From Sporopachydermia quercuum (lineage: Eukaryota), in assembly GCA_001599295.1 (NCBI GenBank), contig BCGN01000011.1:372001-408711 (forward strand): a DNA stretch of 36,711 nucleotides, read 5' to 3'. The stretch's first letter is position 1; the number at the start of each line of letters is the position of its first letter. The notes under the pieces were generated by a model. That model was not told the origin of the DNA and searched no databases. It saw only the letters and a program-made list of their open reading frames with translations. A program made the translations under genes and the position numbers. Positions 3,266 to 17,606 of this stretch are shown one piece after another.

Positions 3266-5026
3266 ATGTTGCTATGTTCAAGTAAGTACAAGTTTCTCAC
3301 AAATGCAATACAATATGCATTGATCTGTCGCGGGTTTATATATGTAAATACCTATACATATGGTAAAGCTGACATTGGAAAGTTATTAAATCAATAGCAT
3401 TCCAATTGTTCAACTGCACTTCTCAAATTCCTTGTATTCTAACAAATAATAGTTTCTAATGAGCCTGCTAAGGATCCAGTTGTTTCAACTCGTTCTGGAT
3501 GTATTTTCGATAGAAAGTTGATCGAAGCGCACATCAAAGCGAATGGCACTGATCCTATAAACAATGAACCATTAACAAACGATGACTTAATTGCTATCAA
3601 CACAACTGCACCAGCATTAATTTCACCTCCTAAACAAATCTCTCAGGTTTCAATACCGTCACTACTGTCTTCACTACAAAATGAATGGGATGCGACTGCT
3701 TTGGAGTTATTCAATCTACGGAAACAGTTATCAACTTCCAAGCAAGAGTTAAGTACTGCGTTGTATCAATATGAAGCTGCTGTTAGAGTTGCTGCAAGGC
3801 TTAGAAATGAAAGGGATGAAGCAAGAGATACTTTGGCTAAACTAAGTGCGAATTTAGGATCTACACTAGCTGTTCCTGCAAATGAAGAAGCAGAAACCAG
3901 CATTGGACCAACTACTCAAAATGAGCCAGAATCAATAGTAGAAGACTCCAATACAAAGCTACCAGAAGACGTAATTGAGCTAATTACTACCAAAAACACA
4001 GAGATATTTGCTGAGAGAAAATCAAGGAAGATTCCAGAAACATGGCTGAAAAATAATGATATATTATCTTTTACTGTTAAACCAATTCAACAAGTAAAAA
4101 ACAAATCAATCACTGGAGCACCTGTGAAGGCTGGTAATGTTATTTTTAGCAATGACGACAATAACAACACTTCTTTTATCTTTTTTGCGACCCCCGAAGC
4201 TCTATTCTGCTATTCCTTGCTCGAAGGAAAGGTATCTACGGCTAAATCTCCTAAAGGTAATTCCATCACCTCTGTCTGCCTGCATCCAACTGCTGGTAAT
4301 ACTGTGTTTGTTGGATTATCATCAGGTAGTATTTATACTGCCTCGTTAGAAAAGAAAGCTACATTGAGTTTAAAATTCCACGCTACAGATTTAACTAATA
4401 ATGGACTACCTATTGTCAGTATTATCACTCATCCAGTATCAACTTCATTTTTAATAAGTGTCACTGCTACCAGTTATACATTCTATGATTTAGAAAGAAG
4501 TAAAGTATTAGTACAAGTGCCTGCTCCAGCGGATGTTGCAGAGTTCACTACATCTTTGGCCCATCCTGATGGAACTTTACTTGCTATTGGAACAGCTGAT
4601 GGGAGTATTGTAGTATATGATATCCGACAAAGTGAAGTAGCTGCCACATTCACACCGCTATCATCCAATAAAGTTTCAGCTATCAGCAAGATTCAATTTG
4701 CTGAAAACGGTTACTGGTTGCTAGCACTAGACACTAATGGAGATCTTAAAGTATGGGATCTGAGAAAACTCAAATGCGTGAAAGAATTTACCGGACCTTT
4801 CAAGGATTTCAATTTCGACTACTCAAATCAATACCTGGCGTTACTATCAGAATCTCAATTAACAGTTGCTCAGTATACTAAAAGTGGCAAGAAGTGGCAC
4901 TCTGATTTAATCACTATAGATATATCCGGTAATTACATTCAATGGTTAGGCTCAAATACTGATTTGGCACTTGAAGTGTTTAGCTCTTCGCCTTCTGTTG
5001 TCAGTGTTGTAAAAATAGGTCTATAA
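3266..5026 (+). CDS. PRP19: Pre-mRNA splicing factor / U-box E3 ligase Prp19 (529 aa; exons 3266-3281, 3453-5026)
   Basis: Intron 3282-3452 (GTAAGT...TTCTAAC...TAG). Splicing gives the U-box start MLCSISNEPAKDPVVSTRSGCIFDRKLIEAHI..GTDPI, then the Prp19 coiled coil SIPSLLSSLQNEWDA..LELFNLRKQL..KQELSTALYQYEAAVRVAARL, then WD40 repeats (HPDGTLLAIGT, FAENGYWL, VWDLRK). Confidence 0.96.
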
Positions 5027-5206: not shown

Positions 5207-6976
5207 TCAATGTTTTATTCTTGCTTTTCCAGAATATATTTTATTCTCAATCTCTAAGAGTGAACAGAAGTATTCAGTATGAGGATCTGAGTATTCTTTA
5301 GGTATTTTTCTGCTTTTCTTTTCAAATGGCACATCTCCTTTGAATAGAAAAGGAATAACCAGCTTTCCTTTATCAACAATATTCTCATTGACCCATCTAA
5401 GTTCTGCTTCTATCTCTTTTGCTAGCTGTTCTTTTACTTCTAGAAATTGGGAGTTTGTTAACTTATTCTCTACCCAGTTGTTATTTTTATCACCATAGTA
5501 ATANGTCTTTAGAAAATCATATACTGGTGGTATAGGTTTCGTAGGTTTCTTCTCCTGACTGTATTCAAAGTATTTCTCCGTAACCCTTGTTATAGCTAAC
5601 CATTCAGCGTCATATTCAAGTTGGGAATCCGTATCCTGGATATTTGTCAAAGAAGGGCTCTGCTCGCTTAAATCCATCGATCTTTTACGCTTAGCACCTA
5701 AAGTTTTATTTTTTTCCTCCCCCTTTGCTATTTCACGGTGGACTTCGTGGGCTTCATTGGCATTTGTCTCGCTGTTATTTCTATTATTGTCGATGTTCTC
5801 TATGTTCTCTGTAGTATCTTCATTGATGTTACCGGTATTTCTGGTATCTTGTTTGTCATATATATCAGATTTCACTTCAATCACAGTATCAGTTAGAAAA
5901 TGCCTTTTTGGTAGACACTTGTCAACGGCTTCGAAAAAGGTTACCTTTCCTTTAGAGTCTTCTATTNTTTTCAAAATCACATCATTGAACTCGGTCTCTT
6001 TTGATGACTCACTATTTTCGCCATTATTCTCTGAATTCTCATTCAAATCAACATTCAAATCCAAATCCAAGTCTATCTCATCTTTGTTTGCTTCAGTTGC
6101 TGGTGCTTCATTTTTCCGCTGTATACATGAATCGTAACTCTGCTTCTGCAGCTGATAATGATCTACTGTCGCTTGATAGAAGCAATGCAAATGCCCACTG
6201 TACCATTTGGCAGGTTTCAATTCATTTAGTAAAATCCTAGCTGGAACAGAACCTAATCTTCCTGTTTGAACGTCTTGCTTGAAATGTTTCTTGAACCGTA
6301 ACAACTGCTGCAGATTGCCATAATGTTCTATACCTTGAGGCCAGTCATGACTCAGCATTATATCAAGAGGTCCCTTACATAACCATAGCTTGAAAAAGTC
6401 TATCTCACGGCAGTTATATGATGATCTGATTGTGAATAGGTTGTACGGAACTCTTTCAAAATGTGGCAGCTTGAATTTTGAGTCATCGTGATAAATGCCT
6501 GATATGCCACCTATTCGAATGCCTTTGTATCTAATAACTCCGGATTTGCCCAGGAAATACATATTTGGGGCTACCCAGCCTCCATAATGTACTTCATGAA
6601 GATAATTACTTGCTTCATGATTGCCACCAATAAAAACTGTAGGAATAGGAGCTTTTTTCTTCCCTGAATAATATTGATGGAAATCGCCCATCACTCGATA
6701 CTTTTCGGGAACATTCATACAGTTCAAATCTTGGGGATTTCGAATAGCTTCAAAGTCTCCACATATAATCAAAAGGTCAACCTTTTCATATCTGTATCTT
6801 ATTGATGAATAAATTTTATCAAGAGTTCCGTGACCGCATCCTTCGACAACTATTCTTACGGGTTGGTTATTTGATGATGAGGACGATGATGACATCCTTG
6901 TACGATGGATGATAGACATATGACGTGACAGTATATTTGTAGTCGACAATATCCTTCTTTGAAGATAATGAGCCAT
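5207..6976 (-). CDS. DBR1: RNA lariat debranching enzyme Dbr1 (589 aa from ATG 6976, or 562 aa from ATG 6895)
   Basis: Dbr1 metallophosphoesterase motifs VEGCGHG, ICGDFEAIRN, FIGGNHEAS, GGWVAPNMYFLG, SHDWP, WYSGHLH, DKCLPKRHFL and YDAEWLAI. The start is uncertain: in-frame ATGs lie at 6976, 6919 and 6895. The ORF-track start at 7033 is GTG. Confidence 0.95.
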   Translation of the reverse strand: MAHYLQRRILSTTNILSRHMSIIHRTRMSSSSSSSNNQPVRIVVEGCGHGTLDKIYSSIRYRYEKVDLLIICGDFEAIRNPQDLNCMNVPEKYRVMGDFHQYYSGKKKAPIPTVFIGGNHEASNYLHEVHYGGWVAPNMYFLGKSGVIRYKGIRIGGISGIYHDDSKFKLPHFERVPYNLFTIRSSYNCREIDFFKLWLCKGPLDIMLSHDWPQGIEHYGNLQQLLRFKKHFKQDVQTGRLGSVPARILLNELKPAKWYSGHLHCFYQATVDHYQLQKQSYDSCIQRKNEAPATEANKDEIDLDLDLNVDLNENSENNGENSESSKETEFNDVILKXIEDSKGKVTFFEAVDKCLPKRHFLTDTVIEVKSDIYDKQDTRNTGNINEDTTENIENIDNNRNNSETNANEAHEVHREIAKGEEKNKTLGAKRKRSMDLSEQSPSLTNIQDTDSQLEYDAEWLAITRVTEKYFEYSQEKKPTKPIPPVYDFLKXYYYGDKNNNWVENKLTNSQFLEVKEQLAKEIEAELRWVNENIVDKGKLVIPFLFKGDVPFEKKSRKIPKEYSDPHTEYFCSLLEIENKIYSGKARIKH

Positions 6977-8304
6977 ACTGAGAGCACAAGCGCCAATGTG
7001 AATCAGCAGGTATCGGTTGACTTCAAGCGTCACTAAATGATCTGTTTATTCAGTTGTTCGTTTATTTGATGAAAATATTGAGAAAACCGAAAAAGAGGAA
7101 AATGTTGAGGATTAACTTTAAGATTTATGTATGGATTAAAAAAGTGCATAGATGAGAACTTTGATTGAAAACTCGAGAACCGTAAATCAGAGGTTTGATT
7201 GAGTTTTTTAAACCAAGCCATTTACTAGTATTTTATATGTTTAGAGTACAAAATTCAAGTAAGTTCTTCATTTCTATATACATTTTTCAGAAACAACATC
7301 ATATATAAAGAACATACTTCATGATAGACATGACTAAGACCTCTTATTGAAACAAAGTGATCAGAATTGAGTTGCAACTTTAAAATTTTATTTTTGCGGT
7401 ACATGTCAAGTTAAGCTTTCTGTTCCTGAAGTTAATTGGAATTATAGCTCTCCTAACTATGTACCGAGTATTGCAGATTATCTAAGGAGTTGTCAAGCAA
7501 GAAAAGAAAAAAAAAAAAAAGGAAGGAGAAAGAGCATTCTGGTTAACTAATCAATGAAATATCAAATCGAACTGTTGTTGATATTTCATCTTTCCAAGAG
7601 ATAGTCAAAACAAAATTTTAAACTCTTACGTCTCATGCATAATCTTGCGTAAAATACTCATCGATACCGGAAACCAATACACTGTTAAATGCTTAGGTTC
7701 ATAAGTAACATTATATATATCTTCAAGCTTTGTCTATATGCTTAATTCTATCGAAGAAAGAAAGAAAAGAAAGAACTAATCCACTCTTGTATATTCTTAC
7801 ATAATAGACAAAAAGCTTCAAACTCCATCATCTTTTCTGTCTACAGAGGGTCCCCTTGGCAGGTAAATTCTGGACCTTTTCTCTCTGCATCTTTTCCGAA
7901 ATATTTTACGGAGCGGAATTATTGGAAAAGATCCATATTACCATTCATTGAATTTCTACTCACTTAATAGATGTTATGATAAGGATGTCAACTATCTGGC
8001 AAAAATTTGCTGAGACTTGTCATTCAATTTATTATCAATGGCTCGCGGTGTGACTAATATGCATATATAACATGTTTCCTAATTAGCCTTTCCTCTAGCA
8101 AATGCAGTACCAGTATATTGGTTATATTCTAATTCTATCTCTATTATCAAACGTTGTAATTTTATATAGTCAGGTTGGTTATAGTGTTGTAAATGTTCTT
8201 CGGGGTCACAAAATTTTCACAAAAAAAAAAAGAAGAAGAAATTATCGTAAAGCGTTAATGGATACCTATAATGAATAACGTTCATATGAAGAACATCAAC
8301 TTGT

Positions 8305-10102
8305 TCAATTATTAACCTCGGTTGTAGAAACTTCCTCTCTCTCGGCTTCAGCGATTGCTTTCTCTCTTTCATCTTGAATAGCTGGGAAGAATGCTAGATT
8401 ATATCTTGGTGCGATATAATCACTATCAGCATAGCCTAAACATTGCTCTATTTCCTTACTCTGCATTCCCATAATGCGTAGAACTTCAGCAGATGAGTAG
8501 TTCACTAGTGCTCTGCCAACCTCTCTTATAGGCTTTGATTTATCTATCAAACCATCAGGCCCTTTTGATCCTGTGGCAATAGTTATGCATTCTGATGATT
8601 GGAAATTTCCTTCAATACCTATAACACCAGCTGGGAGTAAGCCTGCTTTATTCCTACTGACTATAGCTCTATAGGCTCCCTTATCAACATAAATGGTTCC
8701 ATGAGGCTTTAAAGCATGTAAAAGCCAGAATGCTCTATCTTTCACTGGCTTAACATTAGGCAAAAATCTAGTATGTAATGGAACATCGGATTCTTGGATA
8801 TCTTTCAACTCGTCTTGCTGGATTTGTTCTAAAGTTGCTTGAATAGCAACTAAATCAAACTTTTCAACATCAGATGAATCAATTGCATCTGCTTCAACCA
8901 TTGGTGAGTTATTACCTGATGTTGTCAGCGATCCTTTAGTATAATCATGAGTCTGTATATGCTTAACAATAGCAGCAATATTACCAGGTACGTCACTCTT
9001 AGTGATGATAGTTGTAACTCCTGCAGATGTAGCAAGTTCAGCAGCTATTAGTTTAGTTGTCATACCACCAGTACCTACGTTGCTACCCATAGAAGAAACA
9101 TCAACGTCCAGCTGTGATAAATCATCAACTATTAAAATAGGTTTAGCATCAGGATTGCTTCTGGGATTGTCTGTATAAAGACAATCAACATCAGTCATTA
9201 AGAATAGGTAATTCGCATTCACCATTCCTGCTGTAATGGCAGAAAGTGTATCGTTATCACCAAATCGGATTTCCTTTTTATAAGTTAGTAAATGATGGTA
9301 AGAAAGACATCTATGACTAATTTACTTTCTGAAGAGAGTTTGCACAACGAGAAGGTACAATTTCTCCATTGGTTTAACTATGTCCCTTGTATTACTTACA
9401 GATACTGATAATGTGTCATTTTCATTAACAATAGGAACAACTCCCATATGAATGAGTTCTTGCAGAGTATTAGCTGCATTCAAATATTGGGTTCTCTATA
9501 TATCATTCATTTGTTAGTATTCTCAATCTAATATTTATTGATAGCAAACTGTTATCAATATCAACAAGCGTTGATCTTGTTCTCATCTTAAGCGAAGTCG
9601 AAAAGTACTTACATCAGCAATATCGTTTCTTGTTAATAATATCTGAGCAATCGGTTGTCCCAGCTGTCTAAACATATCATCCCATAATGCTATTAACCTG
9701 CCTTGACCAATTGCTGCGACTGCTTGAACTAATGATAGCTTCTTTGGTCTTTTAGGTAACCCAATTCTCTTTAAACCAAAGGCAATGCCTCCTGATGATA
9801 CTATTATTACCCTATGGCCATCTCGCCTCAATCGAACCACAGTCTCAACAATTAGAGACATGTTCGCTATTCTAGGGTCTCGAGTTACTTCATCTACTAG
9901 CGATGATGAACCTATAATATTTGGTTAGGCTCTTTGTTCATACTGAATTAAACATTACTCATAGAACAGCTTAGAATCATGAGATTAGATGATAGAATTT
10001 TAAGCTCACNTTGAAACTCAATGAATTCCAGTCAATTGTAGAAAAACTTCAATACATACCTAGTTTAATCACAATGGTATATGTCTTTGGATGCCTAGCC
10101 AT
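8305..10102 (-). CDS. PRO1: Glutamate 5-kinase with C-terminal PUA domain (468 aa; exons 10102-10060, 9911-9613, 9495-9400, 9273-8305)
   Basis: Introns 10059-9912 (GTATGT/GCCTAAC/TAG), 9612-9496 (GTAAGT/TACTAAC/TAG) and 9399-9274 (GTAAGT/TACTAAC/AAG). The spliced protein has [62 protein letters not shown] and the PUA motif GLLPAGV. Confidence 0.96.
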
Positions 10103-16303: not shown

Positions 16304-17527
16304 TGGATATCAATATTGTGTTAATACGAGAAGAAAGTATCAGGAGCTTTGACCCATTTGATAGCAAGTGTTGGCTTATTACTAATAAAGCTCTAGCGAT
16401 TGGTGCCATATGTCTTTGGCAATGAGCATACGATATGATAAGACAATTCACGGTATTCTGTCTTCCTGCCGCTATTTATTTATTGATCTATCAATTGAAA
16501 GGAAGTAGTAGTGATAACATCATTCGGATCATAGTAGATAGCAATAATGATGATGATATGATTCACCAATCTGTATTGATAACAAATCCTCTGATAGGAA
16601 ATTGTAGAGAAATGCCTGAGAATGAGCAATCATCCATATCGTCTACTATATGAACTTCTACATGCATATGCAAGGAATATGTAGGCAGAGTTAGGATTGA
16701 GTAATAGATACTGCATGAAAAGCAAAAAAGAAAGGCAAAAACAAAGATGCAAATTATGAAAAATCAGACAAAAGAGCACTATATATAACAAAGAACTTTC
16801 ATTTAAATTTTTGTAATAATAATCGGTATATTGTTATCATAATTTGCTATATGATGAGCAGAATAGCTTATACTAGGACATTAAGCTTAGAAGGATGTAG
16901 GAACATACATGATTCGTACATGGAATATGCTACTACTTACTATACTACACTTCTCATTGATGGTCTGCTTTCTTAGAATAATACCCTCAACAATGTATTT
17001 ACTTTTAGTATNAATATTATCTATTTATTCATATTGGAGCTGCTTATTAATTATAGTCTTCCAGTATTCATTTGATATACAACTACTTGAGGATTCTATC
17101 TTTAGCATGAGCAAGTAGTAGAAAGCAATTAAGTTTGACAAAACATACTAATGCATATTAGTGCGTCATAAGGTAAACTGTTCGGTGAGATGGGAAATGT
17201 CTCTGAACCTTCTTTTTTCTTNCAATTACCAGGCAAAACCCCCTTGGAAAGTGTTTATTCCTAACACCTGCCTTATGAATATGCCTTCCCCTGCAGTAAG
17301 CTGATACCTGCTTATGTGCCTCAGGCACTATCTTCTTGTCAATAAAAACAGAAACAACGAATTAGGATCAAAGATAGTAAAAAAATATGGAGATCAATAT
17401 GTGTTATCATAGGTTTTGACTCTGAAAAGTGTTGTCTAATCATATTCCTATAAACCTGCAGAAGCGTTGTTTTCTCCTTGTATACAACTAACTTATAGTA
17501 TATAAACTTTTTTCCCGTTTCCATAAT

Positions 17528-17601
17528 GACTCCGTGGCCAAGCTGGTTAAGGCGCACGACTGTTAATCGTGAGATCGAGAGTTCGATCCTCTCCGGGGTC
17601 G
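17528..17601 (+). tRNA. tRNA-Asn (anticodon GTT), intronless, 74 nt
   Basis: GACTCCG/CGGGGTC acceptor stem, TGGCCAAGCTGG A box, CACGA-CTGTTAA-TCGTG anticodon arm, GTTCGATCC B box. TATAAA lies upstream at 17501-17506. Confidence 0.98.
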
Positions 17602-17606
17602 GCTAC

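Follow-up and report, generated by a model that had tools for sequence, protein, structure and literature searches.

Several yeast genes, among them HTS1, VAS1, MOD5 and TRM1, supply dual-targeted enzymes by the use of two AUG codons. Mitochondrial group II introns are excised as 2'-5' branched lariats, and to our knowledge no debranching enzyme is known inside mitochondria. Here we analyzed a stretch of 36,711 nucleotides from the yeast Sporopachydermia quercuum (assembly GCA_001599295.1, contig BCGN01000011.1, positions 372,001 to 408,711; hereafter the window), which contains an orthologue of the lariat-debranching gene DBR1 with additional in-frame ATGs upstream of its usual start. The extension that they would add resembles a mitochondrial presequence. 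We consider it plausible, with a probability of about 0.45, that this is a dual-start DBR1 whose long form would be imported into mitochondria.

Related cases have been described in Saccharomyces cerevisiae. Dual targeting by two AUGs is reported for PIF1 (PMC11229318). Non-AUG upstream starts can add mitochondrial N-terminal extensions, according to Monteuuis et al. 2019 (PMC6582344), in whose main text DBR1, YKL149C and 'debranching' were not found. For Dbr1 itself, a 2023 bioRxiv report on the yeast mitochondrial transcriptome (10.1101/2023.01.19.524680) states that the S. cerevisiae protein is neither predicted nor found in mitochondria and is absent from mitochondrial proteomes, and suggests that an enzyme not yet identified could debranch yeast mitochondrial lariats. 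Our own literature search on Dbr1 or debranching together with mitochondria found no report of a mitochondrial Dbr1 or a two-AUG Dbr1 within the retrieved portions of the papers. One Neurospora crassa paper that pairs a debranching enzyme with a mitochondrial proteome (PMC5295593) was set aside as irrelevant; the gene merely adjoins a repeat bound by AOD2.

The DBR1 orthologue occupies positions 5207..6976 of the minus strand, stop codon included. It was taken from the list of open reading frames (ORFs) and, as read, is a single exon that encodes 589 residues from ATG 6976. The protein is assigned to the Dbr1 family by the Pfam DBR1 C-terminal domain (PF05011; residues 344-579, E = 1.3e-25, 90.9 bits against a cut-off of 26) and by a metallophosphoesterase core (Pfam Metallophos; residues 41-265, E = 1.2e-06, 29.5 bits against a cut-off of 21.5). 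The metal-site motifs GCGHG, GDFEA, GGNHEA, SHDWP and GHLHC are readable in the translation and align with those of orthologues, and 2'-5' phosphodiesterase activity is predicted. The best matches in a protein search were 49-59% identical to the window Dbr1 over residues 1-300, and two loci from a metagenome scan reached 47-48% identity. A first-pass annotation of this DNA had claimed two basic clusters for Dbr1, AKRKRS and KKSRK, and both were found in the translation. An acidic, Asn-rich low-complexity insert (5700-6110, minus strand; approximately residues 290-425) separates the catalytic and C-terminal domains; with it, the protein far exceeds the length of most yeast orthologues (390-515 residues).

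Start codons and N-terminal extension of DBR1

Three in-frame ATGs, all on the minus strand, lie ahead of the catalytic core. The first ATG of the open frame (6974..6976) has A at -3, G at +4 and a single A in positions -12 to -1. The second (6917..6919, residue M20) has C at -3 and is 24 nucleotides upstream of the third. The third (6893..6895, residue M28) has A at -3 and is where Dbr1 proteins usually begin, the G of GCGHG lying 18 residues further on. The first-pass annotation had described ATG 6976 in frame upstream of ATG 6895, A at -3 of both, and an extension of 27 residues with five Arg, three His and neither Asp nor Glu. Our reading of the sequence confirmed each of these points and added the third in-frame ATG at 6919. 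The presequence-like extension covers the 27 codons from 6976 down to 6896 (6896..6976). Between 7148 and 6895 there are three ATGs and all are in frame; out-of-frame ATGs are absent from this interval, and no stop codon separates the in-frame ATGs. The frame is open from a TAA at 7046..7048, the first in-frame stop upstream of ATG 6976.

Above ATG 6976 is a candidate 5' leader, 172 nucleotides long and free of ATGs (6977..7148, minus strand). Its base composition is coding-like to about 7050: the G+C content is 0.40-0.41 over 6900-7049 and 0.24-0.31 farther upstream. The rest of the spacer between DBR1 and the upstream PRO1-like gene contains 28 ATGs in 1156 nucleotides, which gives P = 0.015 for an ATG-free gap of 172 nucleotides. 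In a looser control that covered the entire window on both strands, 510 of 7308 windows of sequence (7%) were ATG-free. The nearest upstream ATG is at -173 for ATG 6976, while ATG 6895 is preceded by ATGs at -24 and -81, both in frame. For eight other start codons in the window, the corresponding distances are -41, -89, -128, -134, -179, -316, -539 and -601. To be the sole start, ATG 6895 would need a leader shorter than 24 nucleotides; otherwise, the leader would include ATG 6919 and ATG 6976. The ATG-free stretch looks like a real 5' leader, below which ATG 6976 behaves like a true first AUG. The long form is therefore probably made, and we consider it likely that the mRNA includes ATG 6976 and that translation starts there.

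Mitochondrial import receptors recognise acid-free, Arg-rich, amphipathic N-termini. The extension is amphipathic, with a maximal 18-residue hydrophobic moment of 0.489. As a control, we profiled 225 ATG-started heads of non-coding open frames in the window; 44 were acid-free and 37 had at least five Arg or Lys. Both properties were combined in 4 of the 225, and in one case the hydrophobic moment of 0.489 was also attained. Markov simulations were run from three background models (the spacer, the local 153 nucleotides and the extension itself). A 26-codon frame was open in 14-29% of the simulated sequences, and 1.9-3.6% of the open frames were acid-free with at least five Arg or Lys (0.35-0.7% when the hydrophobic moment was also required). 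The head of the succinate dehydrogenase (SDH) flavoprotein encoded in the same window, which we take to be a mitochondrial presequence from its Pfam family match and general knowledge, has chemistry values similar to those of the Dbr1 extension. The chemistry of the extension is unusual, yet rarity alone is no proof of function because very many genes were screened.

In the mechanism we propose, DBR1 would be read from two or three in-frame start codons. Initiation at ATG 6976 would yield a 589-residue precursor whose first 27 residues would serve as a positively charged, acid-free, amphipathic mitochondrial presequence, with candidate processing sites after M20 or M28 (Arg at -3 or -2, Ser at +1). 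Initiation at ATG 6919 or ATG 6895 would yield the ordinary nuclear/cytosolic Dbr1, and these downstream ATGs could be reached by leaky scanning past the A-poor ATG 6976 or on transcripts that begin downstream of 6976. The mitochondrial Dbr1 would act on excised group II intron lariats by opening their 2'-5' branch. Dual targeting had already been put forward in the first-pass annotation. Its two-AUG layout and presequence-like chemistry proved to be real and statistically unusual, and together with the ATG-free stretch they are read directly from the DNA. From these features we infer translation from ATG 6976, import, the production of both long and short forms and a mitochondrial substrate; a role on group II lariats would lie one step further still. 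Given translation, import of the long form is somewhat favoured.

Competing explanations for the extension

A rather unlikely, though substantial, alternative is that the frame is open by chance. The protein would then start at ATG 6895 (or 6919), ATG 6976 would lie upstream of the transcription start or be rarely used, and the 27 codons would be leader or promoter DNA that is open and basic by accident, without any mitochondrial isoform. Several observations speak for this account and weigh against a presequence translated from ATG 6976. We scored codon and amino-acid usage by log-odds trained on sequence from the window, approximately 16 kb of it coding and 19 kb non-coding, and the extension scored -5.95. 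This value is non-coding-like: open non-coding windows have a mean of -4.0 (standard deviation 4.0) and coding windows a mean of +4.6 (standard deviation 4.3), the SDH flavoprotein leader scores +1.3, and just 0.2% of coding windows reach so low a score. The log-odds are dominated by amino-acid composition, so any unusual leader is penalised. Among the 42 acid-free coding windows, one fell below the extension (-6.03) and one was slightly above it (-5.72). The synonymous-only score of the extension (-0.96) is uninformative at 26 codons.

The sequence context also sets ATG 6976 apart, as it is the least A-rich of the starts that were checked. Positions -12 to -1 contain 4-8 A in eight of the nine other starts (the PRP19-like row was counted one base off), and ATG 6895, with four, is inside this range. 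The A-poor context cuts both ways, as a gene that relies on leaky scanning needs a weak first AUG. A start at ATG 6895 would also give the usual Dbr1 N-terminal length, since 191 of 228 Dbr1 models have at most 15 residues ahead of the first strand. Relatives likewise favour the shorter protein. A basic, acid-free extension was seen in none of the 12 named Saccharomycotina Dbr1 models (P0002, P0005, P0010, P0014, P0017, P0046, P0048, P0055, P0059, P0098, P0109 and P0232). Among 1.84 billion representative proteins, 1531 match the first 130 residues of the window Dbr1; the best of these matches start at query residues 35-42, and no representative aligns to extension residues 1-6. As far as can be seen, the extension is thus confined to its own lineage. 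Table 7 of PMC3797045 assigns S. cerevisiae DBR1 to the nucleus and gives a MitoProt value of 40.1, which is low, without a cleavage site. Finally, hundreds of thousands of windows were screened, and rare accidental layouts get picked from such a number.

A chance frame has to accommodate other features of the locus. Fifty codons are open upstream of ATG 6895, whereas the stop-to-start distance is 1-34 codons in six other genes of the window. All three ATGs within 254 nucleotides share one frame below the improbable ATG-free stretch, and chemistry of this kind arises in under 1-4% of open frames. Excluding ATG 6919 from the message would, moreover, demand the leader of less than 24 nucleotides noted above.

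It is also conceivable, but improbable, that the gene does yield the long form, possibly as its principal product, and that the extension is a lineage-specific disordered basic tail without an import role, or one for RNA contact or nuclear-nucleolar retention. The leader evidence that the mRNA's first AUG is ATG 6976 suits this account, as does the lack of conservation beyond the lineage. Long Dbr1 N-termini of mixed chemistry are indeed common: when 150 representatives were sampled, unseeded, across all eukaryotes, the core was preceded by more than 25 residues in 37 of 149, and many of these heads are acidic or RGG-like. Set against this, an acid-free, Arg-rich, amphipathic leader would tend toward import whatever its origin, and the in-frame Met codons retained at the canonical start fit a gene with two products, as the dual-start reading supposes.

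A further long Dbr1 head comes from a non-fungal eukaryote. This EukProt entry (P0301, a Trinity transcript) has a strongly basic head of 55 residues with one acidic residue and a Met just before the core, and it shares with the window Dbr1 the two-Met layout outside fungi.

Basic Dbr1 extensions in filamentous ascomycetes

Unexpectedly, and in support of the dual-start reading, database comparisons revealed that many Dbr1 models from filamentous ascomycetes carry long, acid-poor basic extensions that end at the Met where most orthologues start. In the first set of 228 models, the first strand was preceded by more than 25 residues in 24, and 14 of these 24 had at most one acidic and at least three basic residues in the first 30. 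Twelve of the 14 are filamentous ascomycetes, 11 by name and one (P0158) placed by its sequence. Among 79 further proteins there were ten long heads: five were acid-free and basic, one (P0435) was acidic and four resembled fusions or additions. Because extensions of this type served as seeds for the second and third protein searches, these counts are enriched and do not represent frequencies.

We compiled 18 Dbr1 models (17 from named filamentous ascomycetes, plus P0158) with basic extensions of 33-81 residues that end at a second Met. Twelve of the 18 extensions are wholly acid-free over 34-81 residues. By the listed names, the compiled extensions span five classes (Pezizomycetes, Sordariomycetes, Leotiomycetes, Eurotiomycetes and Dothideomycetes). 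Extension-bearing models include P0123, P0137, P0370, P0371, P0373, P0392, P0406, P0003, P0092, P0124, P0145, P0155, P0194 and P0191. In sister species such as Sclerotinia sclerotiorum and Botrytis cinerea, and also in Neurospora, the Dbr1 models begin at the second Met.

The Podosporaceae provide a closer comparison. The first five of the models just listed belong to this family and share the extension, and the second Met is present in all five. In the four closest models, the extension is 47-62% identical versus 88-92% for the catalytic domain, and the frame is kept. Presequences evolve fast while frame, charge and freedom from acidic residues are kept. The Podosporaceae extension would appear, from these alignments, to evolve in just this manner.

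The extensions from filamentous ascomycetes are gene models, save for one metagenome locus (L001) that was read as raw DNA without a gene caller. In L001, an ATG at 2773 in a weak context is followed by 64 codons with one acidic residue, six Arg and seven Lys. The second ATG, at 2965, is preceded by cccaaa, a strong context, and the interval from the first to the second contains no other ATG. Upstream of the match, 121 codons are free of stops. Six of 14 extensions contain the motif Q-x-R-x-[KR]-[ST], whereas 5000 shuffles averaged 0.16 and never exceeded 3; the motif was defined post hoc, and several of the 14 sequences are related.

These extensions resemble that of the window in being basic and mostly acid-free and in having a conserved Met at the canonical start. 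They differ from it in length (33-81 residues, the window's being shorter) and in being Lys-rich near the second Met, whereas the window extension is Lys-free. A hidden Markov model (HMM) of 14 filamentous-ascomycete extensions scored the window extension at -0.2, and 1978 of 2000 shuffles scored at least as high. This counts against conservation of the window extension beyond its lineage, and on this score we rejected homology between the two. Because the profile misses the window extension, the parallel is one of design and not of descent, that is, an analogy. Judged from the models, the filamentous-ascomycete extension may represent an undescribed long, possibly mitochondrial Dbr1 isoform. 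A broader generalisation, which we regard as tentative and on balance doubtful, is that a mitochondrial Dbr1 made from an upstream AUG is a recurrent, undescribed feature of ascomycetes, with a short leader here and a conserved leader of 33-81 residues in filamentous ascomycetes, and that it would supply the opening of group II lariats.

Gene neighbourhood and comparison with known systems

Most of the other ORFs in the window were identified by Pfam matches, and the gene names are our own. PRP19 (3267-5023, plus strand) is convergent with DBR1; the two genes, both related to splicing, stand tail to tail with 183 nucleotides between their stop codons. On the minus strand, a PRO1-like glutamate 5-kinase gene (Pfam) lies 1.3 kb upstream of DBR1. 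The remaining ORFs encode an NAD synthase, a homologue of Raptor/KOG1, a mitochondrial carrier, the SDH flavoprotein, a proteasome ATPase and an alpha/beta-hydrolase-like protein, and one window ORF of 303 residues had no Pfam match. Single N bases near 5967 and 5504 turn two residues of the window Dbr1 into X. There are 41 N bases in the window as a whole, and the ones inspected (two in DBR1 and two near PRO1) are single. Such single bases may be masked ambiguity codes of a heterozygous or low-coverage assembly.

Introns were recognised in the PRO1-like gene (three short ones; 9300-10102, minus strand) and in PRP19 (one; 3267-3450, plus strand). All four begin with GTAAGT or GTATGT and share a strict CTAAC branch site, which the 3' splice site follows at a distance of 8-15 nucleotides. 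In the spacer above DBR1, a five-codon mini-ORF (7312-7331, minus strand) runs into GTATGT at 7317, 340 nucleotides upstream of ATG 6976. It could be a hidden 5' exon, as splicing of the mini-ORF from 7331 to the base that precedes ATG 6976 would keep the frame, but we rejected this because there is no CTAAC branch site between 7317 and 6976. A non-coding RNA in the DBR1-PRO1 spacer was likewise rejected, the sole match (24.7 bits) being far below the gathering score of 90. No transfer RNA (tRNA) gene was found in this spacer, and the only one in the window is at 17527-17603. A run of approximately 25 T on the DBR1 sense strand (7505-7535, minus strand) lies about 540 nucleotides upstream of ATG 6976 and may belong to a promoter, either that of DBR1 or that of a transcript not yet annotated.

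If the dual-start reading is true, a mitochondrial Dbr1 isoform would be the missing debranching activity in at least some fungi, and nuclear and organellar intron turnover would become linked. It would also offer a way to study how hosts restrain mobile group II introns. Such an activity would influence the turnover of the intron RNA and intron mobility. The interest rests less on the window alone than on the like design, with signs of conservation, in many filamentous ascomycetes. Their models suggest that the layout may be testable in laboratory fungi such as Podospora.

Compared with S. cerevisiae Dbr1 (YKL149C), the reference lariat debranching enzyme, the window protein belongs to the same family and has the same domain order (metallophosphoesterase core followed by the DBR1 C-terminal domain) and the same metal-site motifs. 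It adds the basic leader of 27 residues before the canonical start and the long acidic, Asn-rich insert between the domains. The S. cerevisiae genes with non-AUG upstream starts (PMC6582344) are similar in that both designs may add a mitochondrial pool of a non-mitochondrial protein; in the window, the upstream start is an AUG. For genes of the PIF1 and HTS1 type, both isoforms and their locations have been proven experimentally, and the window case is known from sequence alone. The likeness to these genes is in the arrangement, where in-frame AUGs flank a short presequence-like segment without an out-of-frame AUG between them, and in the enzyme, for which both compartments could offer nucleic-acid substrates. 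A presequence flanked by two AUGs is a known mechanism; Dbr1 as a client of this arrangement would be new.

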